A DNA stretch of 32,000 nt from Promethearchaeia archaeon (GCA_046497275.1 JAWOFX010000142.1:1-32000), one strand, 5' to 3'. Numbered from the stretch's first letter, positions 12,165 to 32,000 are shown. Notes: a model not told the origin generated them from the sequence alone. Translations and numbers: made by a program.

Positions 12165-13364
12165 TTAATCATGACTCTTTAATCTCTCCTCAATAAAATT
12201 TAATTGCTGGATCATCCACGATTTAAATTTAATAAAATCTGAGATAGGAGGAATTGAATTATGATTTGACAAATCTTTCTGTTTTTCAGAAAGAACTGAA
12301 TTGATGTCTCTATTTTTTAAGGACTCTTGGCTTTTTTGTTTATATTTACTTTCATTATTTATAATTTTATCAATGAAGTTGCTTTGAACTCCGAGTTTGT
12401 GTAAAATTGTTTGGAAATCCGCACGTTCTTTTTCTGAGAGCTCTCCATTCTTATTAAGGGTATCTTTCCATTGAATAAGAAAGTCTTTAGGAAATCCTTC
12501 AGACCAGTGATGCCTTCGCAAGTAATTATAGAGTCTGCTGGGTGTAAATAATTCACTGAGTTCTAAATTACTCGGATTCACATTACTCGTCCGATATTCA
12601 TCGAGTTGGGTGATAAAGACTTGAAATAGATGTTTATTCTGTGATTGGATAATGTCAAATTCGTTGGTAAAATCGAGTGCTGTAGTATCTTCTGCCTTAG
12701 ATTGTAGACGGGAACCTTTTATGGAATCACCATCATTTGTATCTTCAGGAAGAATAATGTTATAATAGTTCTCGGTGAATTCAATCACCCGTTCTTGTTC
12801 TTGTAGAGTATATGCACTTGCGATCTCCTCAATATTGAGAGATTCGGGATTTGAATTCATAGCAATATAAATCTTGTTGGCAGTATTTTTAATCTCTTGA
12901 AGAGCGTCTCTGAGCATACTATAATTCTTTGCGAGTGAAAGGATCATCCTTTCCATTGTGAGATCTACATTCTCGAAATCATAATTAAGAAATTTAGTAG
13001 ATTTTTTATTATAAAAGACGAAATTACTATGGGTGGATTCGATAAGATCAGTTGCATTTTGAGTAATGTTAAGGATTGCATGAGCGTTCTCAAGATCTAG
13101 AAGCTGTTTCGCCTTCTTTTTATTAAGATTATAGATGAGGTGATAATTTGGAGTGTGAGAATAGGACTCTGCGTCGCTCCTAATCATCTCTCGGATATTA
13201 TAAAGAGCAGTTGCTTCCAAGTCTATAAGGTTGTAGCCGACGGTAAATATCTCTAAGGTTCTTAGATGTTTAAGATCTACATGCGGAAATATTACAATAT
13301 TTTTTTGTTTAAAAAAGATCAAATGCAAGAACTCGGGTGTGAGAAAATCATACTCTGTGTCCAT
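12165..13364 (-). CDS. Hypothetical protein
   Basis: 399-aa ORF with a T-rich TATA element 19 nt upstream. No motif recognised. Confidence 0.75.
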   Translation of the reverse strand: MDTEYDFLTPEFLHLIFFKQKNIVIFPHVDLKHLRTLEIFTVGYNLIDLEATALYNIREMIRSDAESYSHTPNYHLIYNLNKKKAKQLLDLENAHAILNITQNATDLIESTHSNFVFYNKKSTKFLNYDFENVDLTMERMILSLAKNYSMLRDALQEIKNTANKIYIAMNSNPESLNIEEIASAYTLQEQERVIEFTENYYNIILPEDTNDGDSIKGSRLQSKAEDTTALDFTNEFDIIQSQNKHLFQVFITQLDEYRTSNVNPSNLELSELFTPSRLYNYLRRHHWSEGFPKDFLIQWKDTLNKNGELSEKERADFQTILHKLGVQSNFIDKIINNESKYKQKSQESLKNRDINSVLSEKQKDLSNHNSIPPISDFIKFKSWMIQQLNFIEERLKSHD

Positions 13365-13383
13365 ACTTGATAAAGAGGATAGG

Positions 13384-13400
13384 TATTTAAAAAGAAAAAA
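13384..13400 (-). promoter_or_regulatory. T-rich/TATA element, spacing variant TTTTTTCTTTTTAAATA
   Basis: 19 nt upstream of ATG 13364 in a divergent intergenic region. Confidence 0.55.
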
Positions 13401-13431
13401 GTAAGAGAAGAATCATAAAAAAACTCTTCAC

Positions 13432-13446
13432 CTTTTTCTTTATATA
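13432..13446 (+). promoter_or_regulatory. T-rich/TATA element CTTTTTCTTTATATA (1 mismatch)
   Basis: 23 nt upstream of a small ORF at 13470. Confidence 0.5.
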
Positions 13447-13554
13447 TCTAAAAATTACAAAATAGTGCTATGATTTCAAAACAAACTTATATATATAAAA
13501 ATCAAGTTCTTACTAACGTTGTCTTTATTTCATTTTTATAGTTAAATTTATAAA

Positions 13555-13569
13555 TTTTTTCTTTATATA
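13555..13569 (+). promoter_or_regulatory. T-rich/TATA element TTTTTTCTTTATATA (exact)
   Basis: 68 nt upstream of ATG 13638. Confidence 0.65.
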
Positions 13570-13637: not shown

Positions 13638-13934
13638 ATGAAGTGTGAATATTGCAAGAAAATTTTTCCCAGATCGAGCAAAAGGAGAGTGCGACATAGA
13701 AATACGCAAAGTTCTAATGGATCACTCAATTTTTGCTCGAAGAAATGCTATGAACAATGGCTTCAAGAGATCAAACACACCAATCTCCATTATTACGTAG
13801 TATGGAAAGTAATTGCTTTTTTTGGAAATTTTAAGTTTCGCAAACAGCTCATCCAAAGCGAAGGTATCATACCCGATCTTGGGCTCCCTAAAGATAATTC
13901 TCACTTTGCGCTTAACCTACAGGATGAATTTTAA
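13638..13934 (+). CDS. TRASH/MYM-type zinc-finger protein
   Basis: MKCEYCKK...NFCSKKC (CxxC...FCSxxC). Confidence 0.65.
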   Translation: MKCEYCKKIFPRSSKRRVRHRNTQSSNGSLNFCSKKCYEQWLQEIKHTNLHYYVVWKVIAFFGNFKFRKQLIQSEGIIPDLGLPKDNSHFALNLQDEF

Positions 13935-14081: not shown

Positions 14082-14735
14082 TTAAGAAAAATTGAACAAA
14101 TTGAACAGCACTTGACCCAATAAATCCCGAAAGGTCTCAGCAACATTTTGTCCAGTGAGAGCAATCACGGGATACACAACGAGCGTTCCATCAGCATATT
14201 CTTCCTCTTTTGGAAGTCCTAATTGCTTCTTAAACTCATCAATATTTATCTTAGTCTGAATATCGCGCTTATTGAGTTGGATTATGTAGGGTATGCGTCG
14301 AGGGCTTGCAAAACTCAGCAACTCTCGGAAACTCCTTTTATTCTGCTCTAAAAGTTCTGGCTGAGAATCAGCAACAAACATGATCCCATCGGCACCTTCT
14401 AGTACATACTCTCTTGTAGAGAGAAAGCGCTCTTGCCCTGTGCAAGTAACTACATGCACGATGATTATATACTCTTGCGTATTAATGGTAGCTTCAAAGG
14501 AAAGAAACATAGAATCCTGCCATAGAGTTCTACCGTCTTTAGTTTCAATAGAATAACCTTTAGTGACTCTGTGACTGTCAAATTTTTCTTTAAGACGAAG
14601 GAAGTTGGTGGTTTTGCCCGATTCCCCAGGGCCCCAATAGACGATCTTTAATTGGATCATATTGCCAAGAATCACCCCCCCTGTATTAGTATGGATACTA
14701 TCATACTCCGATTCTTCGATTTCATTTCTGAGCAT
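14082..14735 (-). CDS. mglA: MglA-family small GTPase (alternative start ATG 14660)
   Basis: LKIVYWGPGESGKTTN (G1), RTLWQD switch I, TCTGQ (MglA-type G3 without Asp), ADGIMFVADSQ, NKRD (G4), ALTGQNV (G5). Confidence 0.88.
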   Translation of the reverse strand: MLRNEIEESEYDSIHTNTGGVILGNMIQLKIVYWGPGESGKTTNFLRLKEKFDSHRVTKGYSIETKDGRTLWQDSMFLSFEATINTQEYIIIVHVVTCTGQERFLSTREYVLEGADGIMFVADSQPELLEQNKRSFRELLSFASPRRIPYIIQLNKRDIQTKINIDEFKKQLGLPKEEEYADGTLVVYPVIALTGQNVAETFRDLLGQVLFNLFNFS

Positions 14736-14753: not shown

Positions 14754-15302
14754 TCAATCTAAAGAAATTATTTTATTACCGAATATTTCACTTTTTAGTA
14801 TCTTAATGTGTTCTTTCAGCTCTTTTTCGTTCATCTTTAAAGTACTTTTAATCGAACCTGAGTTTTCGATTTCCTTTTTAATTTTCATTGCGAAGCGTTG
14901 CATTTGTAAGACTGCTACGCCGATATTCACTTCATTATCCGATAGAAGGATGATGAGAACCTCTCGCTTTTCTTGTTGATTAAGCTCTACGTTGGTAATT
15001 GACTTAACAAACAATCGTAGATTATTATAGATAATAGAAGCACGATCCAAATAATCAGCATCGAAAAAATCTTGTCCTTGTCGCGCAACACCATAAAGCG
15101 CCGCACCAATGGAAGAGAGGTCCCAATAATTCAGATTTCTATCAAATCGCGAATCGACTGCGATAATTTTAGCATCTTGATCAACCGCGATGAGGCCATA
15201 TACGTACCCCTTTCGAGTAAGCGTGCCATAGCTATTTCGAATCTCGTCTAAAATAGTACTAATACTGTTCTTATACAAAACTTTTGGTATGGTAATGGTC
15301 AT
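14754..15302 (-). CDS. mglB: Roadblock/LC7 (MglB-like) protein; likely start ATG 15302 (MTITIPK) rather than 15398
   Basis: Roadblock pattern (GLIAVDQDAKIIA...LSSIGAALYGVARQ...VLIILL...NIGVAVLQMQR) directly upstream of mglA. The promoter motif lies inside the longer ORF's first 32 codons. Confidence 0.7.
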   Translation of the reverse strand: MTITIPKVLYKNSISTILDEIRNSYGTLTRKGYVYGLIAVDQDAKIIAVDSRFDRNLNYWDLSSIGAALYGVARQGQDFFDADYLDRASIIYNNLRLFVKSITNVELNQQEKREVLIILLSDNEVNIGVAVLQMQRFAMKIKKEIENSGSIKSTLKMNEKELKEHIKILKSEIFGNKIISLD

Positions 15303-15353: not shown

Positions 15354-15368
15354 TATATAAAGAAAAAA
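15354..15368 (-). promoter_or_regulatory. T-rich/TATA element TTTTTTCTTTATATA (exact)
   Basis: 51 nt upstream of mglB ATG 15302. Confidence 0.65.
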
Positions 15369-15394: not shown

Positions 15395-16330
15395 TCAAAA
15401 CATTTTTAAGATTGATTTTTTAGTAAAATGAAGTTCTTTTCTCTTATTATAATCATTCTTTTCGATAAAAATACTCTTTAATTTAATAAGCATTCCATTT
15501 TCAATGATGCGGAGAATCTCGATTGCCTGCATTCCCCATACCAATACATTGATAGCTCCAGTCTCATCGCTTATCATAAATTTCAATAAAAAGGATTTGT
15601 CTCCATCTTCAGAATCAAATTCTTTCAACTCATCTATCTTTACTATGCCTGAGATTTCTTTTACAAATCCATCCTTCTGATACAGATCTCGTATTTTTAA
15701 TTCTTCCTGAGCCTCTCTTGAAGAAAACTCATTTTTTCTGGCATTAGATACCTCAATTTTTTGCAATTCCACTTTTATTTTTTTAGGAATATTATCAGGA
15801 TTTAATTGTACCTTTCCTTGTTTTGAGAGATGCACTTCTAACCGATCTTTCAATCCTTTCTTACAATAGCAATTTATAACTCTAATAATTGTTCCGATCT
15901 TGAAAAATTCAGTCTGCATAATCTTGGTATGATCATCCCAAAGCACGATTTTGGTAGTTCCTGAGGTATCTGATATCAAAAACGAACCAACATTACCTGA
16001 AGTACCGTCTTTTCGCATGAATTCATTTATGGGAAAAATACGTTTAATCTTTCCCAACAGAACAATATTTGAAAGATTTTCACGTAGATCCGATATGAGG
16101 ATTATAAATTCATTATAATCAATTTCTTGATTTGCTTCTTCGTAGAGTTCAGGATCGATTTGAGCTGACCGAATCTCGATCCCATTTTCTTTTGCGATGA
16201 GGAAAAGAGCGCCTTGAGGAGTTATAAATCCCTTAAACTCAAGTTCTTTGCGTTTTAGTTCCTCTTTTATCTCTTGTTCTGATAGTCCTGCTTCGGTCAG
16301 TTTTTGGTATACATCTTGGGCATCACTCAT
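15395..16330 (-). CDS. rpa: RPA/SSB-like OB-fold single-stranded DNA-binding protein
   Basis: N-terminal helical domain (GFITPQGALFLIAKENGI), OB1 (NIVLLGKI...F.RKDGTSGNVGSFLISDTSG..KIVLWD), OB2 (LKFMISDETGAINVLVWG). Confidence 0.85.
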   Translation of the reverse strand: MSDAQDVYQKLTEAGLSEQEIKEELKRKELEFKGFITPQGALFLIAKENGIEIRSAQIDPELYEEANQEIDYNEFIILISDLRENLSNIVLLGKIKRIFPINEFMRKDGTSGNVGSFLISDTSGTTKIVLWDDHTKIMQTEFFKIGTIIRVINCYCKKGLKDRLEVHLSKQGKVQLNPDNIPKKIKVELQKIEVSNARKNEFSSREAQEELKIRDLYQKDGFVKEISGIVKIDELKEFDSEDGDKSFLLKFMISDETGAINVLVWGMQAIEILRIIENGMLIKLKSIFIEKNDYNKRKELHFTKKSILKMF

Positions 16331-16931
16331 TTTTTTTTAATACACCTTTTTCAATCATTATATTTTTAGTACGATAAAAGGCATAGGCAGAACAATCCAT
16401 AAGCACTCGGATATTTTGCATTAACAAATTTTTTGTAGATAAAGGATCGTTCAAATCAGTGAGATAGATAACTATCGCAAGTTGCGTGGATATTCGTGGC
16501 CAAAAACTCGCAATTTGGAAAAATTGCTGAAGAATTTTCAGGTTAGTTTTTGCTCGGGGATAATCGAATACTGGAGCCAATTTATAGACTTTATGTAAAT
16601 AGATTCTTACTTTGGAATAAATACGATTCTGTTTATATCTCCACTGGATATGCGATCTTTTCCAAAATTTTCTAAAGTAATAAAACTGAGCAAAAAATTT
16701 TTCTATTATGTCCCTAACCAGAAACTCTTGAATATTGGATTCTTCAGAGATTTGACGATAAGTATCATCAGAAAGCATATCTAGCAGAACCGTCTCATCT
16801 CCGTCTTTAGTAATTGGATGACCTCGAAAAAGCGTCTTTAATACTTTCTGCCTAATCTTTCCGAAATATAAAGAGTATTTTAACTCATGGGCAGTTTTTT
16901 CCTTAATGGTTATACTAAATACATTGGTCAT
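16323..16931 (-). CDS. Hypothetical protein, possible HTH plus TFIIB/cyclin-like C-terminal repeat
   Basis: Overlaps the rpa start by 8 nt (operon). LAIVIYL...CSAYAFYRTKNI loosely resembles the TFB repeat end. Confidence 0.55.
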   Translation of the reverse strand: MTNVFSITIKEKTAHELKYSLYFGKIRQKVLKTLFRGHPITKDGDETVLLDMLSDDTYRQISEESNIQEFLVRDIIEKFFAQFYYFRKFWKRSHIQWRYKQNRIYSKVRIYLHKVYKLAPVFDYPRAKTNLKILQQFFQIASFWPRISTQLAIVIYLTDLNDPLSTKNLLMQNIRVLMDCSAYAFYRTKNIMIEKGVLKKNE

Positions 16932-16990: not shown

Positions 16991-17005
16991 TATTTAAATA
17001 AAAAA
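16991..17005 (-). promoter_or_regulatory. T-rich/TATA element TTTTTTATTTAAATA (1 mismatch)
   Basis: 59 nt upstream of ATG 16931. Confidence 0.55.
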
Positions 17006-17067: not shown

Positions 17068-18165
17068 TCAAAATATCATATCCAATGTCTTTTGAACGGT
17101 GCTAGGACGATTCAAATCATACTGAAAAAATCGTAAGCATTCGTAAAAGTTCTCATTAAGTTTTTTTGAATGCTTTTCTACTCGTTCTGGGTTTAAATGA
17201 TGATCCTTGCATAATAACTTAAAAATTCTCATTTTATCAGGTGGATTCCAACATAAATAATCAAATGAATCTAATACTTCAGGTAAAAGGAAAATTTTCC
17301 GAACTTCTGAAATAAGATCTCGGTCTAACTTTGAAAAGTCAAATTCATTGTGCTTTTTCGATTTTATTTTCTCGATAGTTTGATATTTTTTAATTAATTT
17401 GAGTGCTGTTTTAGGCCCGATTCCTTTAATACCTTGGAAATAATCAGTCTCAAGCATAAATGCGAGATCAACTAGTTGAAAGCGATCAATTCCTAACAAT
17501 TCTAAATTATGTTGTATATCTATTACCAATGGAACTAAACGAGTATATGTCCATTTATTTTGCACTTTTCTCCTCAGAGATTTTGATAAGTTTTGAATTA
17601 GAAATGGGCACCCAAACAGCAATGAATCAAAATCCTGCGAATTAGAAAAGTTAGCGATACCTTTTTTGACTAAGTGGGCACATTGCGATTCTGCTGAGGC
17701 GGGCGATTCGACTACGGGAACCCCAATCGCATGAAGAAGCTCTTTCGATTCTTTCATGATATTCGGCCATAAGTATTCTTTTGAAAGAGCGATAGTCCTT
17801 GCTAATTCTCTATTTCCGCTATTTATAGCATTTTTATATCGCTTTTGGGTGAACAAAAAATCATTAAGTTGATTTTTAGTAATTTTTCGCTTTAGTGGAG
17901 AAACTCTGCCATCAAAACAAAAAATTGGAAGGATGTTTTTGCTGTAATAAAATTTGATCCTGTAGAGAATTCCGTATAAATGAGAAATGACTCGTTGCGT
18001 ACGATCAAGAATTAAATTAGTTTCTGTATTTAATGTTGGATTTTTATGGCTGAAGTTGAGCAATCCCATGATTATGTTCGGTGCATCAACAGAAATTATT
18101 TTTCCCTTTAATTCTTGGAAAGTAATTTTTCTTCGCTGAATAATAGGATCTAATTTGATTCCCAT
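17068..18165 (-). CDS. fen: Flap endonuclease FEN1/XPG-family paralogue with C-terminal PIP box
   Basis: ISVDA, SHLYG, FCFDG, SAESQCAHL, SQDFDSLLFG, ETDY, GIKGIGPKTALKLI (H3TH), QKTLDMIF. Confidence 0.88.
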   Translation of the reverse strand: MGIKLDPIIQRRKITFQELKGKIISVDAPNIIMGLLNFSHKNPTLNTETNLILDRTQRVISHLYGILYRIKFYYSKNILPIFCFDGRVSPLKRKITKNQLNDFLFTQKRYKNAINSGNRELARTIALSKEYLWPNIMKESKELLHAIGVPVVESPASAESQCAHLVKKGIANFSNSQDFDSLLFGCPFLIQNLSKSLRRKVQNKWTYTRLVPLVIDIQHNLELLGIDRFQLVDLAFMLETDYFQGIKGIGPKTALKLIKKYQTIEKIKSKKHNEFDFSKLDRDLISEVRKIFLLPEVLDSFDYLCWNPPDKMRIFKLLCKDHHLNPERVEKHSKKLNENFYECLRFFQYDLNRPSTVQKTLDMIF

Positions 18166-18185
18166 AGATTTTTTATTAAATATAG

Positions 18186-18201
18186 AAATAAAAAGAAAAA
18201 A
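18186..18201 (-). promoter_or_regulatory. T-rich/TATA element, variant TTTTTTCTTTTTATTT
   Basis: 20 nt upstream of FEN1 ATG 18165 in a divergent region. Confidence 0.45.
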
Positions 18202-18375: not shown

Positions 18376-18390
18376 ATTTTTCTTTAAATA
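18376..18390 (+). promoter_or_regulatory. T-rich/TATA element ATTTTTCTTTAAATA (1 mismatch)
   Basis: 56 nt upstream of ATG 18447. Confidence 0.6.
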
Positions 18391-18446: not shown

Positions 18447-18809
18447 ATGGGAGAAGATATAGTGTTTTATGATGAACCTGGCAGGAGTAAAAAATATGTA
18501 AAAATCATATTTATTGGGATCTTAGCATTTATTGCAATCTATTTTCCACTTTTCGGAAATAATCTGCGGTATCAGATCGGAGGGATGCTTGATACACTCT
18601 TTAATTTTATTGGGATTATCTGCTTGTTCTTAGGGGGAATAAATATTGCCATCGGATTTTTAGGACTAGTTGCAAAAAAATTCTATTTGGGAAATGTGGT
18701 CATAGGGGCACTCTTACTGTGGATAGGATGTTGGCTTACAGGGATTGTGATAAATTTATTCGGAGTAATTTTTGGCGGCTCCGAAGTTTCTAATCCTGGA
18801 TATCATTAA
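18447..18809 (+). CDS. Small 3-TM membrane protein (possibly VirB2/CedA1-like pilin); likely start ATG 18447 rather than 18399
   Basis: GAGG SD precedes 18447, and ATG 18399 is only 8 nt from the TATA element. Gly-rich hydrophobic helices with an AKK loop. Confidence 0.65.
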   Translation: MGEDIVFYDEPGRSKKYVKIIFIGILAFIAIYFPLFGNNLRYQIGGMLDTLFNFIGIICLFLGGINIAIGFLGLVAKKFYLGNVVIGALLLWIGCWLTGIVINLFGVIFGGSEVSNPGYH

Positions 18810-18815
18810 AATTAG

Positions 18816-18888: not shown

Positions 18889-19113
18889 TTAAACACCTAT
18901 TCGAAAATATCTCATCCCTGTTTGGAGTCCACAAACTGCAATTAAGAGTATAGAAATGCCTAACACAAAGTACATACTACTCCTTTTATAACGTGGAAGG
19001 GTCATCATTCCGAGTACTCCGATGATAAGCCCTAGCACCCCCATGATCGAGCCGAAAGCGATCAAAAACTCTATTGCTTCTCCAATCATATCAAAATAGT
19101 TATTATAAATCAT
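18889..19113 (-). CDS. 74-aa two-helix membrane protein (pilin-like candidate)
   Basis: FLIAFGSIMGVLGLIIGVLGMM-TLPRYKRSS-MYFVLGISILLIAVCG: two hydrophobic helices with a basic loop. Confidence 0.7.
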   Translation of the reverse strand: MIYNNYFDMIGEAIEFLIAFGSIMGVLGLIIGVLGMMTLPRYKRSSMYFVLGISILLIAVCGLQTGMRYFRIGV

Positions 19114-19137: not shown

Positions 19138-19152
19138 TATATAAAAAAAAAA
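19138..19152 (-). promoter_or_regulatory. T-rich/TATA element TTTTTTTTTTATATA (1 mismatch)
   Basis: 24 nt upstream of ATG 19113. Confidence 0.5.
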
Positions 19153-19188: not shown

Positions 19189-19203
19189 TTTTTTCTTTAA
19201 ATA
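19189..19203 (+). promoter_or_regulatory. T-rich/TATA element TTTTTTCTTTAAATA (exact)
   Basis: 33 nt upstream of TTG 19237 and 45 nt upstream of ATG 19249, in a divergent region. Confidence 0.7.
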
Positions 19204-19236: not shown

Positions 19237-19587
19237 TTGAAAAAAAATATGCGACAAATTGAAGAAATAGGGATCTGTCCTAATTGCGACTGCTCGTTAA
19301 TGATTTATAAGACTTCAAACTATAAGCGGTTTGTTAAGTGCGAAATTTGTGGCCATTCCTACCCTCTTCCCAAACGAGGGCATATTGATAATTCAGCACT
19401 TATATGTCCCTTGCGAGGGTATCCTATTTTAATTGTTCAAAAACGAGACAGTAAAGCATATTTCTGGACAGATAGACCATGTTTTAGCTGCGTCCATATG
19501 GGCACATGCGAGCCTGTCAAGCAATTAGAAGAAGAATTTACTGAATTGGGAGTGTATGGATATGATCAAGCAGGGCAAAACACATAA
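19237..19587 (+). CDS. Standalone topoisomerase-IA-type zinc-ribbon repeat protein
   Basis: CPNCDCSLMIYKTSNYKRFVKCEICGHSYPLP.....CPLRGYPIL...FWTDRPCFSC resembles archaeal topo IA C-terminal Zn ribbons. Confidence 0.7.
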   Translation: MKKNMRQIEEIGICPNCDCSLMIYKTSNYKRFVKCEICGHSYPLPKRGHIDNSALICPLRGYPILIVQKRDSKAYFWTDRPCFSCVHMGTCEPVKQLEEEFTELGVYGYDQAGQNT

Positions 19588-20569
19588 ACACAATCTCCCT
19601 ATTATCATTAGCATTTTGTGTATACTAAGTTTATGCTATCTCCTATCACTTCCTCAGCACGATCCCAATTCACCTGTAATAAAAGGATCTGACTTTCTTT
19701 CTGATGATGATCTTTTAATTGATAAAGTCTATACATTTCATTCTGGCTCCCCAAGTTTAATTATCACTAATCTTACCTTTGAGAGAGAATTCACCTATAA
19801 TATTAAGATGGCAGTGGTGACTGATGAGCACGAGTGCCATATGGAAGTGAATTTATTTGATCCAGAGGGTGATCTCTACGAACTGTTTAGTTCGCAGGAG
19901 CCAATGACATATGATGAGTATTTTGACATCCCTTTTGGTGCGGCACTCAGCGGAGTCTATAATCTCAATTTCACGAAATTGGATGGTCCTAATCTGAATA
20001 TCCATATTATCATTCGGAAGGGAGAATTATGTTTTCGGGAATTTGTGTCAGGAGATGCGAATCATGTCTATGAAATACGGAAATTTGCTCGGATTCCTTC
20101 CGGTAAATCATATCGTCCCTATTATTATTTTAAAGATCAATGGTGCTATCACATCTATCTCTGCAGAGTCTCTCCCATCAGCGCAAATCGGTCAAACCAA
20201 ATAAATTTAGACCATAATGTGGTGGATCCTTCCGTAGAGGGAATTTCTTTTCCCATCTATACTAATCATTCATTGGGACAGATTTGGGACCCACGCAACT
20301 ATGAATTTGGCACGGCAATGGCGGGTGAATATCTGTTAAATTTTACTTTTTATCAAGATCCCGAGTTTATTAATGTGATGTTTTTGATAACCGATGAAGG
20401 ACGATTAGCAGCGGGAGAAGATGCAGGCTCTATCAACGAAACTACTGCTCCAACACCTATTATGTGGGTTCCTCTGGAAGCGCAAGTAGGGATATCTCTA
20501 GGAGTAGGAGCATTAGTATTAGTAGGTCTTATAATTATGATCTATACCAAACGACACTCTAATATTTAA
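19556..20569 (+). CDS. Secreted, C-terminally membrane-anchored protein with two tandem beta-sandwich repeats
   Basis: N-terminal hydrophobic signal. Repeats DPEG...FGAALSGVYNLNFT and DPSVEG...FGTAMAGEYLLNFT. C-terminal TM followed by KRH. Confidence 0.7.
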   Translation: MDMIKQGKTHKHNLPIIISILCILSLCYLLSLPQHDPNSPVIKGSDFLSDDDLLIDKVYTFHSGSPSLIITNLTFEREFTYNIKMAVVTDEHECHMEVNLFDPEGDLYELFSSQEPMTYDEYFDIPFGAALSGVYNLNFTKLDGPNLNIHIIIRKGELCFREFVSGDANHVYEIRKFARIPSGKSYRPYYYFKDQWCYHIYLCRVSPISANRSNQINLDHNVVDPSVEGISFPIYTNHSLGQIWDPRNYEFGTAMAGEYLLNFTFYQDPEFINVMFLITDEGRLAAGEDAGSINETTAPTPIMWVPLEAQVGISLGVGALVLVGLIIMIYTKRHSNI

Positions 20570-20676: not shown

Positions 20677-21897
20677 TTATAGGTTTTGGGCGTAATTTTG
20701 CCACTCTTCTATCATCGATTTTGAGATTCCACTGACTTTTTCAGCTAAATCCTTGGGATCTTTATCCAGTAAGTCATCAATTGTTTCAATTCCATGTTCT
20801 TTTAGAGTATTAAGGGTTCCTTTCCCTATTCCTTTGATATCTGTGAGAGAAGGAGTGTTTCCTTGGTTGATCTCGTCATTATTATCATCATCATTATCTT
20901 CATATAATTCTTCAATTTCAAAGTCTAATCCTTTTCTATTAGGAATTTCCACTTCTTCGGAATCCGCAACACCTGCATGTGTGATAAAGAATTCACACTC
21001 TTCTGGGGGAAGATCGGGTGCATCTACGATCACTGCTCTTCTTTTGAGTGAACTATTTGCAGAGAATCCTTTCGTCTTAAACATAATACGGAAATGACAC
21101 CCATGTGCGACGATATTTCCGCCAATCGCATCATCCGCAGAAAACATACCTTTCATCTGTGTGGCTACTTGGTTGGTAAGCAGAACTGCAGCATTATATG
21201 TCTCTGCGATCCGTGATAATCCATGAATCATATTGTTGAGAACGCATTGTCGTGAAGCAAGCATTCCAATCCCGACATATTCCGCTCGCAAAAGTGCCAT
21301 TAAACTGTCAAGGATTATTAAACGCACATTACGAGTTTCACAGAGTGTTTCTGCCTTAAGAATCATCTGATCTTGATGGTCAGAACTATAGATCCTGGCG
21401 TGAAATATCTTAGCAAGAACTTCTTCAGGATCCAAATTAAATCTAAGTGCGATACGTTTAATTTTACTCCGTGAAAAGGTATTTTCAGTATCAATATAGG
21501 CAACAGAGCTTTCTAATCCTCCTTTCTCCTTCGGAAGCTGGATTGTTACAGCGATTGTATGTGCTAAATTTGTCTTTCCGGATTTAAAGGGACCATATAC
21601 TTCAGTGAGCTTTCCTGTCTGCATCCCCCCTCCAAGGATTCGATCTAATTCAGAAGATCCTGTGGTAAACATTTCGATATGTTCGTCGATTTCAGCAGCA
21701 GGAATAAATTCAGTCATTCCAAGTGTGTTCCTCGCATTCCAGATAAGTTTTTTGGCTGTTTTATCCCCAAGTCCTTTGATATCTGCCACCAATTTTTGTG
21801 ACGACATGGCAAGCATTTCGGCAGTAGAAATACCACTTTCTCGTAAAAGCTTAATATGACGAGAATTAATTCCTTTAATCTGGCTTAAATCTGATAT
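20677..21897 (-). CDS. radA: RadA/Rad51-family recombinase paralogue with an extra C-terminal HhH domain; likely non-AUG start (ATA 21897), ORF-track start 21816
   Basis: TTGSSELDRILGGG, GPFKSGKT, AYIDTENTF, LIILDS, RAEYVG, TNQV, IGGNIVAH, VDAPDLP. The N-terminal HhH continues 27 codons upstream of 21816. Confidence 0.88.
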   Translation of the reverse strand: MSDLSQIKGINSRHIKLLRESGISTAEMLAMSSQKLVADIKGLGDKTAKKLIWNARNTLGMTEFIPAAEIDEHIEMFTTGSSELDRILGGGMQTGKLTEVYGPFKSGKTNLAHTIAVTIQLPKEKGGLESSVAYIDTENTFSRSKIKRIALRFNLDPEEVLAKIFHARIYSSDHQDQMILKAETLCETRNVRLIILDSLMALLRAEYVGIGMLASRQCVLNNMIHGLSRIAETYNAAVLLTNQVATQMKGMFSADDAIGGNIVAHGCHFRIMFKTKGFSANSSLKRRAVIVDAPDLPPEECEFFITHAGVADSEEVEIPNRKGLDFEIEELYEDNDDDNNDEINQGNTPSLTDIKGIGKGTLNTLKEHGIETIDDLLDKDPKDLAEKVSGISKSMIEEWQNYAQNL

Positions 21898-22081: not shown

Positions 22082-22450
22082 CTATGAAAGGATTTCTCTT
22101 AATCGAGAAATATATTCTTTGGGAGTGATTCCGTGAAGAAACGCTGCATGCATCATACGAATATTAATCTCTTCTACTTGCGTTTTCATACTCTCCCCCT
22201 CTATTCCTAAGCTTTTAAGTATAATTGGAAGTGAGAATTCTTCTTTAGGATACTTTCCAAAATGACCACCATATGCAAGAAACATATTTAAAATCAAATT
22301 AATATCAGCCTTTGAAAAAATTCTTCGACAATTTTCACATACTGGGATGTAAAGAATCTTAGATTGATAAACTGAAGAGGGATTGTTAATAATATGGTGA
22401 CAAATTCCACATCGAAGGGGATAATTATTATTTTTCGCTAATGAGTTCAT
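22082..22450 (-). CDS. Small zinc-finger protein
   Basis: CGICHH...PVCENC motif pair. Confidence 0.7.
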   Translation of the reverse strand: MNSLAKNNNYPLRCGICHHIINNPSSVYQSKILYIPVCENCRRIFSKADINLILNMFLAYGGHFGKYPKEEFSLPIILKSLGIEGESMKTQVEEINIRMMHAAFLHGITPKEYISRLREILS

Positions 22451-22471
22451 ATATGATAGTGTATATAGACT

Positions 22472-22486
22472 TATTTAAAGAAAAAG
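22472..22486 (-). promoter_or_regulatory. T-rich/TATA element CTTTTTCTTTAAATA (1 mismatch)
   Basis: 21 nt upstream of ATG 22450, a leaderless spacing. Confidence 0.6.
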
Positions 22487-23234: not shown

Positions 23235-23602
23235 AAATCTTCACTCTCTAATAGCTTTAACACTTCTTGTTTGATCTGTTCTACCTCATCAATACTGTTT
23301 TGAGAATCATCATTAGAGTTGCTTGATTCTTGAGAATTATGTATGTCTCCTGTATTTAATTGCTCAAGCATTAAAAATGTGAGTAGTGAATCACTCATCA
23401 CATTCTGACTTGAACGGGATTTTCGAAAAGAAAAATATCCCGTTGTCTTAGCCCCTGAAGATGATTTCTTTCTTGCCCGTAAAAACAAAAACAGCCCAAT
23501 ACCAATTCCTAAAACAAGTAATGAGATGGTTGGATCTTTATTATAGAACATAATAAAAACTAATACTAATGTTAAATAGCAAAATGCCTTCATACTCACC
23601 AC
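23231..23602 (-). CDS. Small 2-TM membrane protein with polar/acidic tail
   Basis: Two N-terminal hydrophobic segments. Overlaps both neighbours (operon). Confidence 0.65.
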   Translation of the reverse strand: MVSMKAFCYLTLVLVFIMFYNKDPTISLLVLGIGIGLFLFLRARKKSSSGAKTTGYFSFRKSRSSQNVMSDSLLTFLMLEQLNTGDIHNSQESSNSNDDSQNSIDEVEQIKQEVLKLLESEDL

Positions 23603-24333
23603 TGCCCTCGTTCAATTTTTTGTGATTTTTTCTTTTTCGGAGAATGGCGTCTACGATATAGTTCAGAGGATCTAATGGAAGATCCTTGTTTTGAGATTTT
23701 TAATCTAATGTATTCAATAATTTTTCGTATTCCAATGAATGAATATTTGAATATATAATATCCAATCCCAATCAGTATATAAAAGAGAAAGCTGTAATAA
23801 TAGGGAATGATTATATACCAACTAGCCGAATATACAATCAGTGTTGAAAAAAGGACTAATCCAATTTGGTAGATGGAATAGCGAGGATCGTTATTAAATA
23901 CTCTCCCTATGTTATATATATCTGTACCTGAGGGTGAAGATCCTATTAAAAAAGAAACCAAACAAAATGCGGCAATAACTCTATAAATATCCTCAAAAGC
24001 AGGTGAAAGAAAAACGAATAAACAATAAAATGCTAAATAACTAATAATAAGTAATGGAGCTATCCCTGTTAAAAAGGATTGAAGAAAAGTCATACGTTTA
24101 AAATCTTTTAGTTCTACACTTCCATTTAAGCGTCTATAACTAACTTTAAAACGACCAGGGGTTCCGCCGGTTATCAAAAGCATTACAAAATGACTGAGTT
24201 CATGTATAAAGATTCCAAGCACTCCTAAAATTTTAACGATAACCGTAAGTTTGCGATTTTTATTATATATTAAGTATCTTACTAATAAGCCTGACGTAAA
24301 TACGATCGGAAATAAGATAAGATCTTCAAACAT
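23596..24333 (-). CDS. M50-like membrane zinc metalloprotease
   Basis: GIFIHELSHF (HExxH) within a TM segment, multiple TMs, SPSGTD candidate third-ligand motif. Confidence 0.75.
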   Translation of the reverse strand: MFEDLILFPIVFTSGLLVRYLIYNKNRKLTVIVKILGVLGIFIHELSHFVMLLITGGTPGRFKVSYRRLNGSVELKDFKRMTFLQSFLTGIAPLLIISYLAFYCLFVFLSPAFEDIYRVIAAFCLVSFLIGSSPSGTDIYNIGRVFNNDPRYSIYQIGLVLFSTLIVYSASWYIIIPYYYSFLFYILIGIGYYIFKYSFIGIRKIIEYIRLKISKQGSSIRSSELYRRRHSPKKKKSQKIERGQW

Positions 24334-24354: not shown

Positions 24355-24369
24355 TATATAAAGAAAAAA
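24355..24369 (-). promoter_or_regulatory. T-rich/TATA element TTTTTTCTTTATATA (exact)
   Basis: 21 nt upstream of ATG 24333 in a divergent region, a leaderless spacing. Confidence 0.7.
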
Positions 24370-24801: not shown

Positions 24802-26061
24802 ATGGCATCACAAGATTATCCTAAAAATTTTTCAGTGGGAGATTTAGACTTAGAATGTGAAATATGTCATTCTTCAGAAATTAAAGAGACAGAGCAAGGT
24901 TATGTATGTGCTGATTGTGGGCTTGTATTAGAAATTCAGAAAATGGAATATCATCATCCATACAAAGAGGAGCGAATACAGCACGCAGTATTAGACAGAA
25001 CTCAAATTGGTAATACGCGTGAACGGTATCAAAATCAATTCTCGCGAAAATTTCATAAACTCAATAAAATAAATCATACTTCATCACGGGAAGATCCCAT
25101 ATATATGAGAGCAAAAGTAGAGATTTCCAGACTCATTAATGGACTTGAAATGTCGTCTAATATCAAGCGAAGTATACTAGAAAAGTATAAAAATGCACGG
25201 GATGAACTTGCTTCGGGTACAAAATTTCGCAATCCCGATAAATTAGTCCCTGGAGTGATGTACTATCATACAAAGATGAATGGCCAGCCGCTTGATGAGT
25301 CACAACTTCTGGATGTTTCAAAATTAGATAAAAAAGATTTTAATCGTCTTAAATTGAAGATTGGTGAATTTATGCCGGAATATTATTCACGTGATCGAAA
25401 AGAATACATTTCTAATCGCATAATGCAAATTCGTGAAGAATTTGAACTTGATATGGGCTTTTATCATAAAGCACAAGCGATACTTGAAAAATTATGGGAG
25501 GAAATTAAATGTACGAAAGATGACGTCGTGGCGGGGTTAGTAGGTTCAATAGTTGCATTATGCCACTATCAAGATGAAGTGAATGTAAATTCTATTTGTA
25601 AAGCCCTTCACATTCAAATGAGCACTATACAGTCTCAAGTAAAACGCAGAATCATTGATCAATTTCATGTACCAGGATTTCAGAGCTTAGTACGCTCTGC
25701 TGATCTATTAAAAAAAATCATGGTGAAATTAGGATTTTTCACAAAAAAAGATGCTGGAGTCTCAAAATTCTCAAAAAAAGATGAAGAAAAGAAAAATGGG
25801 CAAAACGAAGATGAAAAATATTTGGATTCAGAGATAGTATATATCGAATTACCGAAAGTGATGCCAGATACTCATTCTAGTCAACCTTTTGATCATTCCA
25901 TATTCGCTGTACGAGATGAAAATTCGTGTGATCCTACTATCCTCACGATTTCGCTCTTATATAGCCTAAAACAAAAACCGCAAAAAGCACAAAAACAAAA
26001 GATTAAATTCGAAATATCTCGCTACCACTATCCAAAAGGTCCCCCGATTTTGTATTGTTAA
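24802..26061 (+). CDS. tfb: Atypical transcription factor B (TFB/TFIIB) paralogue
   Basis: Zn ribbon CEICHS...YVCADCGLVL, two cyclin-like repeats, no recognisable B-reader (EWRAF), about 100-aa C-terminal extension. Confidence 0.82.
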   Translation: MASQDYPKNFSVGDLDLECEICHSSEIKETEQGYVCADCGLVLEIQKMEYHHPYKEERIQHAVLDRTQIGNTRERYQNQFSRKFHKLNKINHTSSREDPIYMRAKVEISRLINGLEMSSNIKRSILEKYKNARDELASGTKFRNPDKLVPGVMYYHTKMNGQPLDESQLLDVSKLDKKDFNRLKLKIGEFMPEYYSRDRKEYISNRIMQIREEFELDMGFYHKAQAILEKLWEEIKCTKDDVVAGLVGSIVALCHYQDEVNVNSICKALHIQMSTIQSQVKRRIIDQFHVPGFQSLVRSADLLKKIMVKLGFFTKKDAGVSKFSKKDEEKKNGQNEDEKYLDSEIVYIELPKVMPDTHSSQPFDHSIFAVRDENSCDPTILTISLLYSLKQKPQKAQKQKIKFEISRYHYPKGPPILYC

Positions 26062-26158: not shown

Positions 26159-26173
26159 TTTTTTCTTTAAATA
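26159..26173 (+). promoter_or_regulatory. T-rich/TATA element TTTTTTCTTTAAATA (exact)
   Basis: 50 nt upstream of ATG 26224. Confidence 0.65.
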
Positions 26174-29466: not shown

Positions 29467-29504
29467 ATTTTTTTCACCTTTTCTTTTTCTGATTTTTTCT
29501 TTTT

Positions 29505-30194
29505 ATGCAACTTCATTCTAATCTAATAGAGAATATTATGAATTATTCTGACTTTTTAGATAAGGATGAAAAAGAGTACTCCAAAGATCTGAATACAAGA
29601 TCTACCACCCAAAAATCAACGATATATGAGACCATCCACACTATTCTCAAAATTCTTAACATTTTTCATGGTAATTATGACAAGAAGCTTAACCTCGAAA
29701 AATTATTTAATAAGATTAGTATTCCTGTCCAAGAGAGAGAAGATTATCTCAGACTTATTCTGGAATTTCAAGCCCTCTTTCATACTACTTTCTACACTCA
29801 TTCGCTTGAAGTAAAAGAAATCAATTCAACTATGTATCTTGTCTGTAGACATTTTAAAAATGCCTTACAAAATAATCCAAAAAAAAGTCAGGACCCTAAA
29901 CAAATCACAATCTCATCTCGCGATCTCTCTTTATTAAATGATATTGTCTATATGTTTACTAATATTAAGCGTGGGAGGGGGTTTGATCTCAAAGAAGACT
30001 CTTCAGAAATCGTAAAAGGAATAAAAAGATTACGAAAAAATCACCCTTACATTTTTTTTTCGAATGGTCATGGATATATATATCCTACAGAGTTTGGTGT
30101 CAAATTAGGGCAAAAAACTAATACTTATTTAAAATGTAATCGCCCTATTGACACATTTATTATCGAGGATTGTACAATTACAATTGAGGAATAA
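29505..30194 (+). CDS. Hypothetical protein, possible winged-helix (start may be ATG 29538)
   Basis: 229-aa ORF. GYIYPTEFGVKLG resembles a wHTH wing end. Confidence 0.6.
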   Translation: MQLHSNLIENIMNYSDFLDKDEKEYSKDLNTRSTTQKSTIYETIHTILKILNIFHGNYDKKLNLEKLFNKISIPVQEREDYLRLILEFQALFHTTFYTHSLEVKEINSTMYLVCRHFKNALQNNPKKSQDPKQITISSRDLSLLNDIVYMFTNIKRGRGFDLKEDSSEIVKGIKRLRKNHPYIFFSNGHGYIYPTEFGVKLGQKTNTYLKCNRPIDTFIIEDCTITIEE

Positions 30195-30213
30195 GGATGA
30201 GCGAATGTATTGA

Positions 30214-30228
30214 TTTTTTCTTTTAATA
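30214..30228 (+). promoter_or_regulatory. T-rich/TATA element, variant TTTTTTCTTTTAATA
   Basis: 45 nt upstream of hef ATG 30274. It could also be the terminator of the upstream gene. Confidence 0.5.
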
Positions 30229-30273
30229 TATATGTTTTATAGTTTCACTACTCTTAATAGGATATGATTGTTA

Positions 30274-32000
30274 ATGAGTCATTCCCAAGAAAATATGTTG
30301 CCATTGCAAATAAAAAGTACTTATCTTCACGAGGATAAGATAGAACCTCGGAAGTATCAAGTCGATATTGCCTTACAATGCATAGCAAAAAACTCGCTGG
30401 TGGTCATTCCTACAGGGCTTGGAAAAACAATCATCGCCATCTTAGTTGCTGCTAAAACTTTAGAGATATCTCCACCAAGTAGTAAAGTAATTATAATGGC
30501 TCCCACTCGACCATTAATTAACCAACATTACGAAACATTCCTTCAATTTTTTACAATACCAGAAGATCAATATGCTATTTTGACGGGAAAAATTTCTCCT
30601 GACGATCGTCCTAAAGAGTTTCGATCCCATAAAATGCTATTTTTTACTCCGCAAACGTTACGGAATGATTTAGTGTCTGGCAATTATTTGTTAGATAATA
30701 CAAGTTTACTAATCTTTGATGAGGCACATCACGCTTCTGGGGATTATCCCTATACGATGATTGCAGATCTGTATGAAACGCAAAACCCAGATGGGACCAT
30801 CTTAGGATTAACTGCCTCTCCGGGATCTTCTCAACAAGCGATAAATGATCTCTGTCTAAATCTCCATATTCCTTCCAACAATATCCATATTCGTAAACGC
30901 AAAGATGTCGATGTCAAAGGATACATAAAACCGATGGATATTTATAAGATCGGAGTAAATTTGACCTCACTTATGGAAGATGTAAGAAAAGTATTATATA
31001 TGATCTTAGAAGAGCGACTTCGGTATCTTTCCCAATTAGGATTTTTAAAGGTCCACACAGACAAATTATATGAAAAAATCATTCGAAAAGATCTTCTAGA
31101 ATTGAATCGAAAGTTACTGGCAATCATTCAAGGGGATGGAGAAAAGACGGGAGCCTATAAATCCTTATCTATCAACGCTCAAGGACTCATTTTGTATCAT
31201 ATGTTGGAATTAGTGGAACAGCAAGGCTTAGATGTATTGCTCAAGTATTTGGAAAAACTCCAGAAAGATGCTCATAAGAAAAATAGTTCTAAAGCAAATC
31301 GAATTTTAGCAACAGATCCCCGAATTCGAAGAATTGATTTAGAACTGCGAAAACACTATGAATTTGAGCCTAACAGCTTATTGCATCCGAAACTGAAAGT
31401 ATTGAAAAGTGTGCTTTCTGATGAATTTAGTAAAAACCCAGAATCAAAAATATTAGTATTTGTAAAGCTTCGAGCTTCCGTAAAAAATATCGTAAAAAAA
31501 TTAGAATCTTCTCAAACTATACGACCTGTACGATTTGTAGGACAAGCAACAAAATCTGACGATGATAAGGGACTTTCCCAAAAAAAGCAAATCGAGATTT
31601 TGGATAAATTCAAGCAAGGAATCTTTAATGTATTAGTGAGTACCAATGTGGGAGAGGAAGGCTTGGATATTGCCGAATGCGATTTAGTGATCTTTTATGA
31701 TGTGGTCGCCTCTGAAATTCGTCTTATTCAAAGAAAGGGACGAACAGCGCGTCATCGTGAAGGAAGAGTGATCATTCTCTACTGTCGCAATACGAATGAT
31801 GAAGTCTATTTACAGATTGCGATGAATAAGTTAAAACGTATGCAGAGAAATCTGCAAAATCCGCAAACGAAGAAAAAGAGTGAATTTTCTCGTTTTACCG
31901 TTAAAAAAGGATCTGAATTAGAAAAGGAAGTGAAAGGAAGAACCCAAAAGAAGCAATTTAATTTGGTTGATTTTGTCAATACACAAGAACAAGAAAATCA
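30274..32000 (+). CDS. hef: Hef/FANCM-type SF2 helicase, 3'-truncated by the window (absent from ORF track)
   Basis: Frame 1 is open to the end: EPRKYQ (Q motif), VIPTGLGKT, APTRPL, FDEAHHASG, LTASPG, HPKL, STNVGEEGLDI, IQRKGRTAR. Confidence 0.92.
   Translation, partial: MSHSQENMLPLQIKSTYLHEDKIEPRKYQVDIALQCIAKNSLVVIPTGLGKTIIAILVAAKTLEISPPSSKVIIMAPTRPLINQHYETFLQFFTIPEDQYAILTGKISPDDRPKEFRSHKMLFFTPQTLRNDLVSGNYLLDNTSLLIFDEAHHASGDYPYTMIADLYETQNPDGTILGLTASPGSSQQAINDLCLNLHIPSNNIHIRKRKDVDVKGYIKPMDIYKIGVNLTSLMEDVRKVLYMILEERLRYLSQLGFLKVHTDKLYEKIIRKDLLELNRKLLAIIQGDGEKTGAYKSLSINAQGLILYHMLELVEQQGLDVLLKYLEKLQKDAHKKNSSKANRILATDPRIRRIDLELRKHYEFEPNSLLHPKLKVLKSVLSDEFSKNPESKILVFVKLRASVKNIVKKLESSQTIRPVRFVGQATKSDDDKGLSQKKQIEILDKFKQGIFNVLVSTNVGEEGLDIAECDLVIFYDVVASEIRLIQRKGRTARHREGRVIILYCRNTNDEVYLQIAMNKLKRMQRNLQNPQTKKKSEFSRFTVKKGSELEKEVKGRTQKKQFNLVDFVNTQEQEN

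Follow-up and report, generated by a model that had tools for sequence, protein, structure and literature searches.

What does it mean for an archaeon to carry divergent copies of recombination genes, interspersed with membrane protein genes and a TFB-like gene, under a promoter of their own? The question is raised by a 32,000-nucleotide stretch of a Promethearchaeota/Lokiarchaeia (Asgard) genome, referred to here as the window, for which an initial annotation proposed an alternative-TFB regulon linking recombination to cell contact or DNA exchange. Here, we describe a computational analysis of this locus, of the promoter element that its genes share, and of its occurrence in related genomes.

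Extent and gene content of the island

The genes lie in one island of approximately 36 kb, comprising C13:12165-36408, contig C42, and C158:22.6-29.9 kb (Table 1). Beyond the window the island continues to C13:36408 (Hel308) and then into contigs C42 and C158, the latter contributing an E1-like ThiF gene. These two contigs overlap by 191 nt, and their placement after Hel308 on C13 is based on synteny with genome G006.

The island includes a second set of DNA-recombination genes, with extra, divergent paralogues of RadA, FEN1, RPA, and Hef. All four had been recognised in the initial annotation and are borne out by Pfam domain matches, and a genome search confirmed its premise that canonical housekeeping copies of RadA, FEN1, RPA, Hef, and TFB are encoded elsewhere, outside the island. 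The RadA paralogue (PF08423, 240.7 bits) aligns over its full length to Rad51, Dmc1, and RadA from residue 4, with the N-terminal HhH, the Rad51 core, and Walker A and B motifs visible as GPFKSGKT and LIILDS, and possesses an extra C-terminal HhH pair following an acidic linker (HHH_5, residues 324-374). It is 39% identical to the two canonical RadAs, and, unlike the canonical copy, scores at least as high against eukaryotic Rad51/Dmc1 as against archaeal RadA. The FEN1 paralogue contains XPG_N and XPG_I (E 3.6e-19) with the H3TH motif, and its best PDB matches are archaeal FEN1 (188 bits); the canonical FEN1 is on C156. The RPA-like protein is 42% identical to the canonical 575-aa RPA on C34. 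The Hef paralogue, an SF2 helicase with paralogues on C156 and C59, is 42% identical to the Hef on C156; no ERCC4 nuclease domain was detected in it, its C-terminal 142 aa have no Pfam match, and a genome search found ERCC4 only on C156 and C71.

Several other assignments stand in part. The RadB-like protein is a P-loop protein, with a weak blastp match to RadA (E 2e-5); the topoisomerase-type Zn ribbon and the M50 protease reduce to a Zn-ribbon protein and an HExxH membrane protein whose family matches are sub-threshold. For the proposed MglA/MglB pair, the GTPase has Arf, Ras, and Roc matches, and the partner, which has no Pfam match, resembles Roadblock clusters in language-model (Atlas) features only. 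The proteins described as pilin-like and adhesin-like are membrane or surface proteins, none of which has a family match. The 229-aa protein modelled as tandem winged-helix domains resembles the folds of ScpB, MukE, and Nse3 only weakly (E 3e-3 to 4e-2). No function could be assigned to approximately half of the island proteins, and the term recombination therefore covers only the recognisable part.

Table 1. Genes and promoter copies of the island within the window, in order of position
Feature	Position	Strand	Evidence or remark
399-aa protein, function unassigned, first island gene	12165-13364	-	No family or fold match; adjoins GTPase in G006 and G020
Variant promoter of 399-aa gene, T6C then TTTTTAAATA	13384-13400	-	Motif search
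Motif copy ahead of only a 23-codon ORF	13432-13446	+	Motif search
Motif copy upstream of 98-aa Zn-ribbon gene	13555-13569	+	Motif search
98-aa Zn-ribbon gene	13638-13934	+	Sub-threshold Pfam DUF7576 match
Small Ras/Arf-type GTPase, operon with Roadblock-like gene	14082-14735	-	Pfam Arf E 3.4e-10, Ras E 1.8e-6; also Roc
Putative Roadblock-like protein	14754-15302	-	Atlas features Roadblock/LC7 0.91-0.95; no Pfam match
Motif of GTPase/Roadblock operon, inside 3' end of RPA-like gene	15354-15368	-	Motif search
RPA-like OB-fold protein, second in unit after 202-aa gene	15395-16330	-	Pfam OB-fold matches
202-aa protein, function unassigned, first in unit with RPA-like gene	16323-16931	-	
C-to-A motif variant before 202-aa/RPA-like unit	16991-17005	-	Motif search
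FEN1 paralogue	17068-18165	-	XPG_N and XPG_I domains
Variant motif of FEN1 paralogue	18181-18201	-	Motif search
Motif of next small membrane protein gene	18376-18390	+	Motif search
Small membrane protein, convergent with 18889-19113	18447-18809	+	Hydrophobic helices in translation; no family match
Small membrane protein, convergent with 18447-18809	18889-19113	-	Hydrophobic helices in translation; no family match
All-T motif variant of gene 18889-19113	19138-19152	-	Motif search
Motif ahead of 116-aa Zn-ribbon gene	19189-19203	+	Motif search
116-aa Zn-ribbon protein	19237-19587	+	Zn_ribbon_Top1 E 1e-3, below cut-off
337-aa membrane-anchored protein, after 116-aa Zn-ribbon gene	19556-20569	+	
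RadA paralogue, ~406 aa	20677-21897	-	Rad51 domain E 1.9e-71
Motif of RadA paralogue	21951-21965	-	Motif search
122-aa Cys-rich protein	22082-22486 (unit including motif)	-	
Motif of 122-aa Cys-rich gene, 22 nt before ATG	22472-22486	-	Predicted leaderless transcript
RecA-superfamily P-loop "RadB-like" protein, last gene of HExxH operon	22515-23234	-	Generic P-loop matches only; weak blastp to RadA and RadB
123-aa membrane protein, middle gene of HExxH operon	23231-23602	-	
HExxH membrane protein, first gene of its operon	23596-24333	-	Sub-threshold DUF3267 (zincin) E 3e-4
Motif of HExxH operon	24355-24369	-	Motif search
Divergent TFB, 419 aa	24802-26061	+	Profile and fold match to TFIIB; own promoter without motif
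Motif ahead of 1080-aa surface protein gene	26159-26173	+	Motif search
1080-aa surface protein, N- and C-terminal hydrophobic segments, alpha/alpha-toroid domain	up to 29466	+	Prenyltrans E 6e-15
229-aa protein, modelled as tandem winged-helix domains	29505-30194	+	Model pLDDT 75
Motif of Hef-type helicase gene	30214-30228	+	Motif search
Hef-type helicase paralogue	30268 to C13:32430	+	DEAD, ResIII, Helicase_C domains

The shared promoter and the island TFB

The claim that more than ten units on both strands share one unusual promoter is upheld by the motif search. The 14-mer TTTTTCTTTWWATA occurs ten times in the window, compared with 0.06 expected from shuffles (largest shuffle value 1), and all ten copies, on both strands, fall between 13433 and 30228; variant copies precede four further units, and the motif heads nearly all transcription units of the island, at least 12 in number. 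It precedes no metabolic gene in the 1-11 kb region of the window, and Hel308 has a different promoter here. Over the whole genome, the strict 15-mer occurs no more often than its reversed control does (19 copies versus 20), and the signal is therefore one of localisation rather than total count: 12 of the 19 copies are in the joined island (8 on C13 and 4 on C42/C158), whereas the cluster contains 0-1 copies of each composition-matched control. The T6C element of this motif abuts the TATA box without a spacer, at the position where the BRE normally sits. Conservation extends beyond the search pattern to a purine 6 nt after the TATA box and to TTAA at +20 to +23. This is a dedicated, non-generic promoter class.

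The motif is retained upstream of orthologues of the 122-aa Cys-rich gene (25/32), the 116-aa Zn-ribbon gene (17/23), the RadA paralogue (22/33), and the FEN1 paralogue (7/12), and also precedes orthologues of the 1080-aa gene. In the HExxH operon it is kept before the first gene in 23 of 44 orthologues, compared with 0/45 and 1/35 for operon-internal genes. Although present here before Hef, it precedes only 2 of 37 Hef orthologues, and it precedes none of the 69 orthologues of the TFB-like gene.

That the cluster encodes a BRE-variant TFB is likewise supported. The 419-aa protein is, as judged from its predicted structure, a true TFIIB-fold protein. It has a Zn ribbon, two cyclin folds and, between them, a shortened B-reader; an additional beta-rich region at the C terminus ends in a conserved GPP. 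All 8 orthologues compared keep the four Zn-ribbon cysteines, and the Pfam Zn_Ribbon_TF match (E 1.9e-4) falls short of the curated cut-off. Pfam TFIIB (PF00382) fails to detect the protein; a profile search against PDB sequences matches only TFB/TFIIB, in the first cyclin repeat (E 4e-4), and the best 38 Foldseek matches of the model are all TFIIB, TFB, or Brf. Superposition on 1d3u_B covers both cyclin folds (TM 0.70, rmsd 3.7 over 196 columns). Two regions differ from nine canonical TFBs. The B-reader/B-linker is approximately 20 residues shorter and lacks the RAF...G.P...GL.T block, so the protein may perhaps be incapable of initiation alone. In addition, the BRE-recognition helix, TE(V/T)T(L/I/V)R.R in 9/9 canonical TFBs, is replaced by a family-conserved MST(I/V)QSQ in island TFBs, which suggests an altered promoter specificity.

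We infer from these features that the island TFB probably reads the island promoter. In the sister-family genome G038 the island is diverged, with the motif T8-GC-TTTTATAA and the TFB helix ASTVYSH; this co-variation of helix and motif comprises two lineages, and the TFB-motif link is correlative. A different arrangement, in which T6C is read by another island protein (the DUF1922 Zn-ribbon/wH, tandem winged-helix, or Zn-finger protein) acting as an activator beside canonical TFB, with the TFB-like protein in some other role, would suit the shortened B-reader, the several candidate DNA binders conserved in the island, DUF1922 among them, and the separate A(N)TTTC element that Sulfolobus UV promoters need upstream of the BRE (PMC5817253). 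We consider it unlikely, since the element abuts the TATA box exactly at the BRE position without a spacer, the rewritten and conserved part of the TFB is the BRE-reading helix, and helix and element both differ in G038.

Taken as a regulon, the island is rather probably a programme for recombination or repair that its dedicated TFB can switch on. The TFB gene would itself be expressed from an ordinary promoter, and its product, together with the single TBP, would bind the motif promoters and recruit RNA polymerase; activation of the TFB gene would therefore turn on the whole island at once, in the manner of an alternative sigma factor. The products would supply homologous recombination and the processing of branched DNA with a second, specialised group of proteins, comprising the RadA paralogue with its C-terminal HhH2, the RadB-like P-loop protein, the RPA-like OB protein, the FEN1 paralogue, and the Hef translocase beside Hel308, along with the putative GTPase/Roadblock pair, membrane and surface proteins, and many unassigned proteins.

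Distribution, descent, and possible roles

The island has been kept along with its motif and its TFB-like protein at 76 Promethearchaeota loci; the synteny check that the initial annotation called for finds cluster and motif conserved in Lokiarchaeia. These loci, 1.2 Mb in total, contain 131 motif copies versus 3 for the reversed control, and the 1080-aa surface protein gene adjoins the TFB-like gene in 50 of the 76. Five genomes of the same family (93-99% complete) without a close homologue of the island TFB have neither the RadA paralogue nor an excess of the motif, and presence is patchy even within one genus. The island is conserved but dispensable.

Patchiness, flanks that differ between genomes G000 and G006, additional pairs of TFB-like and 1080-aa genes in some genomes, and a promoter class complete with an initiation factor of its own might suggest a mobile element, whether virus, plasmid, or ICE, that has integrated or been domesticated and has its own transcription factor and promoters. 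This is very improbable. No integrase, capsid, terminase, Rep, or virion genes, tRNA target, or flanking/att repeats were found at the island, nor was any relative found in IMG/VR or phage records, and the island resides on chromosomal contigs of up to 998 kb. Furthermore, the RadA paralogue is 76-81% identical across genome pairs in which canonical RadA is 78-81% identical; the two divergences track each other, in keeping with vertical inheritance with losses. The possibility raised at the outset, of a virus or plasmid with a generic promoter, finds no such signature, and the promoter is non-generic. No defence signature was found at the island.

For the suggested coupling to cell contact, competence, or DNA exchange, we found no support. 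The recombination paralogues do share their regulation with at least six membrane or surface proteins and the putative GTPase/Roadblock pair, a dispensable island is what a facultative programme would leave, and a response to DNA damage involving DNA exchange is already known to run under a TFB paralogue (PMC6101591, PMC6101594). A programme of SOS, competence, or parasexual type, with contact or uptake carried out by the membrane and surface proteins, is nevertheless doubtful: the scan of the island proteins, and of those in the extension in G006, turned up no pilin signal, no ATPase for secretion or pili, no translocase of the FtsK/HerA/VirB4 type, and no Ced homologue, and the membrane proteins match no family.

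A cell-cycle-phase regulon, in which a cyclic TFB drives a post-replicative wave of recombination or chromosome resolution, seems quite unlikely. In S. acidocaldarius, division genes are transcribed cyclically under TFB2 (bioRxiv 10.64898/2026.09.06.749720), and the GTPase/Roadblock pair, the tandem winged-helix protein with its weak kite-like matches, and the E1-like ThiF gene would be in keeping with such a role; against it, no division or replication gene with the motif was found, and absence from the five nearly complete related genomes fits poorly with a core function.

Comparison with known regulons

We likewise infer, conditionally, inducibility and a role in recombination for the switchable programme favoured here, and its gene content invites comparison with the eukaryotic set of RAD51/DMC1 duplicates, FANCM, HELQ, and the FEN1 family. 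As judged from sequence, there is in both an extra Rad51-family recombinase beside the housekeeping ones, and a putative Hef/FANCM-type helicase without a detectable nuclease domain adjacent to a Hel308/HELQ-type helicase; unlike in the eukaryotic set, the island FEN1 paralogue is closest to archaeal FEN1 and not to GEN1 or EXO1. It is conceivable, at long odds, that Lokiarchaeia use a facultative, TFB-switched recombination programme, in concert with surface and membrane proteins, to exchange or homogenise genomes between cells or between chromosome copies; the extra Rad51-like recombinase, with the nuclease-less Hef and Hel308, would in that case represent an archaeal forerunner of the eukaryotic meiotic/Fanconi-type toolkit. 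Like bacterial alternative sigma factors and the SOS regulon, the island would place dispersed repair genes under one dedicated factor or signal through a shared element; the machinery, however, is TBP/TFB/RNAP, of archaeal-eukaryotic type, and no LexA-like repressor was identified.

The Sulfolobales TFB3 DNA-damage response, which includes Ups pili and Ced import (PMC6101591, PMC6101594, PMC5817253), resembles the island in tying a TFB paralogue to DNA-repair-related and membrane genes over many transcription units, and in having a short T-rich promoter element ending in C (A(N)TTTC there, where the promoters need it, and T6C here). No Ups or Ced homologues were recognised in the island. TFB3, a truncated co-activator, lacks the DNA-binding cyclin core, whereas the island TFB keeps both cyclin folds with a changed BRE-reading helix. 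In Sulfolobus the element is upstream of the BRE, at -44 to -39, whereas T6C occupies the BRE position itself. S. acidocaldarius TFB2 is, like the island TFB, a full-length paralogue with a cyclin core and a distinct promoter set. In TFB2 promoters, BRE and TATA are similar but differently spaced, whereas in the island the BRE position is rewritten; tfb2 targets itself, unlike the island TFB gene (motif in 0/69); and TFB2 targets are division genes, compared with recombination paralogues in the island. In our reading, the island regulon belongs with regulons of this TFB3/TFB2 type.

Extent and gene content of the island

The MAG that contains the window (C13:1-32000) comprises 188 contigs and 3.85 Mb at 30% GC, and the titles of related contigs name Promethearchaeota or Promethearchaeia, i.e. 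Lokiarchaeia. Ordinary metabolic genes occupy 1-11 kb, and gene character changes from 12165 onward, where an island of recombination genes begins. About half of the island proteins have no assignment: an Atlas search with the 399-aa protein gave nothing usable, and NCBIfam and PDB sequence searches with the 1297-aa and other unassigned proteins gave no matches. The model of the 229-aa protein consists of two winged-helix domains, whose best structural matches, all weak, are the kite subunits of SMC complexes MukE, ScpB and Nse1/Nse3.

Features of the island and related loci (window positions unless a contig is named; genes outside the window are from crude ORF calls)
Feature	Location	Coordinates
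Unrelated amino-acid catabolism cluster: class-III aminotransferase, carbamate kinase-like, OTC, FAD/Fe-S oxidoreductases, AOR	left of island	577-10701
399-aa protein, no assignment	first island gene	from 12165
Extra motif copy	island	13432-13540
Small Zn-ribbon protein (98 aa)	island	
Ras/Arf-type GTPase and Roadblock-like partner	island	
RPA-like OB protein	island	
FEN1 paralogue	island	17068-18165
Small membrane proteins and Zn-ribbon protein	island, between FEN1 and RadA paralogues	
RadA paralogue with extra C-terminal HhH pair	island	21816-21925 (-), region of the start
RecA-superfamily P-loop protein	island	
HExxH membrane protein (zincin)	island	
TFB-like protein	island	24802-26061 (+)
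1080-aa surface protein with alpha/alpha-toroid domain	island	
229-aa protein	between surface protein and Hef	29505-30194
Hef-type helicase	island, right end of window	
DUF1922 Zn-ribbon protein, small ORFs, Hel308 helicase	C13 past window	
HhH protein, membrane protein, 309-aa and ~1300-aa unassigned proteins, ThiF/E1-like gene, three unassigned genes	joined C42+C158	
Canonical RadA, first form	C46	C46:23986-24705
Canonical RadA, second form	C56	C56:2698-3414
Near-motif copy and 683-aa protein	C71	C71:29050-32037
Extra TFB-like pairs in the same-genus genome G006 (L043, L044)	G006:C7	148-188 kb

The island extends past the window onto two further contigs. The last 191 bases of the C42 reverse complement are identical to the start of the C158 reverse complement, and these contigs are one locus split by assembly. 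In G006, counterparts of the C158 and C42 genes sit within the cluster or directly after Hel308, and by this synteny the joined piece continues from the end of C13. Overlap and synteny together give an island of about 36 kb that holds 12 of the 19 strict motif copies found in a genome-wide scan. A reading in which the motif-bearing genes of C42 and C158 formed a regulon separate from the cluster was rejected, as they lie in the same physical island. In both genomes the genes bordering the island are of housekeeping type (in G000, the genome of the window, arginine catabolism and H+-PPase; in G006, DHQ synthase and others), and no integrase was found.

The initial annotation had left room for the cluster being part of a virus or plasmid, and the searches argue against this. 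PHROGs gave no meaningful matches for 10 island proteins, IMG/VR and phage records held no relative of the TFB-like protein, and scans of the window for Rfam families, tRNAs and long direct repeats found none. A defence island was likewise rejected: PADLOC found no partner genes from any known defence system, and Hef and Hel308 resembled SF2 helicases only in a generic way (HamB or Cas3 type).

Island paralogues and their canonical counterparts

The recombination genes of the island are extra copies. Canonical FEN1 and a Hef with ERCC4 lie on C156, a 575-aa RPA on C34, two forms of RadA (67% identical) on C46 and C56, and nine canonical TFBs elsewhere in the genome. Of the two canonical RadAs, one has 443 aa and a Cys-rich, acidic extension at its N-terminus. 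Each of the five relatives examined retains both types, so a set of two housekeeping-type RadAs plus RadB is present in Lokiarchaeia of this family whether or not they have the island. The island RadA shares 39% identity with either canonical form, and protein searches with it returned Lokiarchaeal orthologues only. Its scores against yeast Rad51, Dmc1 and Pyrococcus RadA are about the same, whereas a canonical copy clearly favours archaeal RadA in the same comparison; the likeness to eukaryotic Rad51/Dmc1 is a lead, drawn from scores rather than phylogeny. The coding sequence of its conserved N-terminal HhH lies 5' of the first ATG. The gene in G006 and G020 begins at an in-frame GTG that closely follows a Shine-Dalgarno sequence, and in G000 the same GTG is directly followed by TAA (GTG TAA AAC ACA ATA). 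This reflects either a start at a near-cognate codon or the downstream ATG, a misassembly or a nonsense mutation.

The FEN1 paralogue most resembles archaeal FEN1. Aligned by eye, it has Ser at the position of human FEN1 E158 (ASAES versus SEAEA), and the remaining acidic active-site positions appear retained. No ERCC4 domain was detected in the island Hef.

The TFB-like protein is a tenth TFB, missed by Pfam TFIIB; the genome encodes a single TBP. A profile of eight orthologues matches only TFB/TFIIB among PDB sequences (E 4e-4), and its AlphaFold model (mean pLDDT 62, core 77-88) resembles TFIIB, TFB and Brf, with a TM of 0.70 to P. woesei TFB across both cyclin repeats. In a joint alignment, the recognition helix TE(V/T)T(L/I/V)R.R is common to all nine canonical TFBs, unlike the conserved MST(I/V)QSQ(V/I)K of the island family, whose B-reader region is also shortened. 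The family has some 110 additional aa at the C-terminal end, for which beta strands are predicted at low confidence, with an invariant G-P-P close to the C-terminus.

The shared promoter element and its conservation

At least 12 transcription units on both strands are preceded by TTTTTTCTTTAWATA or close variants, as the initial annotation had recognized in calling the shared promoter unusual. The window contains 10 copies of the 14-mer TTTTTCTTTWWATA, where dinucleotide shuffles predict 0.06, and the motif is absent before all genes of the left catabolism cluster. Eight of the genome's strict 15-mer copies lie on C13 beyond 12 kb, where seven composition-matched words (reversed, C moved, C replaced) occur 0-1 times each. 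Genome-wide the 15-mer is no more frequent than its reversed control (19 versus 20), so the signal is the concentration and orientation of copies, not their abundance. Sites outside the island (C11, C14, C88 and C162, with C47, C75 and C90 falling within crudely called ORFs) are no commoner than control words.

A generic BRE was not definable from the neighbours of TTTAWATA, the AT-rich background being too noisy. Alignment of 131 motif instances from 76 related loci revealed conservation beyond the search pattern, namely a purine at 6 nt and TTAA at 20-23 nt downstream of the TATA box. These features place a predicted start about 22 nt after the box, which identifies TTTAWATA as the TATA box and puts TTTTTTC, relative to that predicted start, at the BRE position (about -36 to -30). 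In two units the ATG coincides with this position, which predicts leaderless transcripts.

Two further copies are noted here. The extra copy in the island precedes only a 23-codon ORF that starts 23 nt after its TATA box; it may be the promoter of a small RNA or peptide, or a second one for the 98-aa Zn-ribbon gene. On C71, the near-motif copy CTTTTTCTTTAAATA precedes a 683-aa multi-Zn-finger protein (DUF4379) and is itself closely preceded by a gene for a stand-alone XPF-type ERCC4 nuclease (an open frame of 253 aa).

The initial annotation had called for an examination of synteny in Lokiarchaeia, and both gene order and motif prove conserved. They are retained in G006, G020 and G004, and across most of the 76 TFB-like loci in Promethearchaeota MAGs the core order is RadA paralogue, 122-aa gene, P-loop gene, membrane gene, zincin, TFB-like gene, 1080-aa gene, 229-aa gene, Hef, DUF1922 and Hel308. 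These loci hold 131 motif copies versus 3 of the reversed control, recurring at the same operon-first genes across orthologues. The TFB-like gene itself has an ordinary purine-BRE type promoter, with the motif upstream of 0 of 69 orthologues. The exact motif is enriched in island-bearing genomes of family f1 and is without enrichment in two closed genomes of the sister family f2. In one of these (G038) the island has diverged (RadA paralogue 64%, TFB-like protein 24% identical); its units share T8-GC-TTTTATAA, and the TFB helix reads ASTVYSH.

Five f1 genomes (93-99% complete, two of the same genus) have no close island-TFB homologue, island RadA or motif excess. Where the island is present, island RadA and canonical RadA have diverged equally (76-81% versus 78-81% identity), which is consistent with vertical descent and wholesale loss of the island; absence from a MAG could also reflect binning loss. 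In some genomes, extra TFB-like genes are paired with paralogues of the 1080-aa protein, sometimes with a GTPase, away from the main island (in G006, and at L073 and L139), and G004 and G017 have 6-7 TFB-like matches each.

A dedicated promoter class and its relation to known regulons

Taken together, the reading we favour as probable is a dispensable, conserved recombination and repair island with dedicated, jointly switched promoters. The island's own TFB would read the element at the BRE position, and the units would be switched together. Alternatively, an activator other than this TFB might read the element; with the T-tract at the BRE position and an altered recognition helix in the island's TFB, we regard this as unlikely. 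Under the favoured model, transcription would start 22 nt past the TATA box, promoter use would be TFB-specific, and the island would be expressed as a whole or not at all. If correct, this would be the first Asgard example of a promoter class set apart by its BRE position and matched with a TFB paralogue of its own, a sigma-factor-like switch made of eukaryote-type initiation machinery. The set is compact, conserved and dispensable, comprising about 30 predicted co-regulated genes, and, in the archaea most closely related to eukaryotes, surrounds extra Rad51-, FANCM-, HELQ- and FEN1-type proteins. We found no paper on this island or motif.

The initial annotation had likened the cluster to the TFB3/Ups/Ced regulon of Sulfolobales. 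As regulatory logic the analogy is reasonable; its cell-contact and DNA-exchange half found no support. None of the scanned island proteins, those of the G006 extension included, matched a recognisable pilus, secretion or DNA-translocase family. A cell-cycle role, resembling that of TFB2 in Sulfolobus cell division, appears improbable. The elements also differ in position: Sulfolobus UV promoters carry an A(N)TTTC element located upstream of BRE (PMC5817253), whereas the T6C element of the island lies at the BRE position itself.
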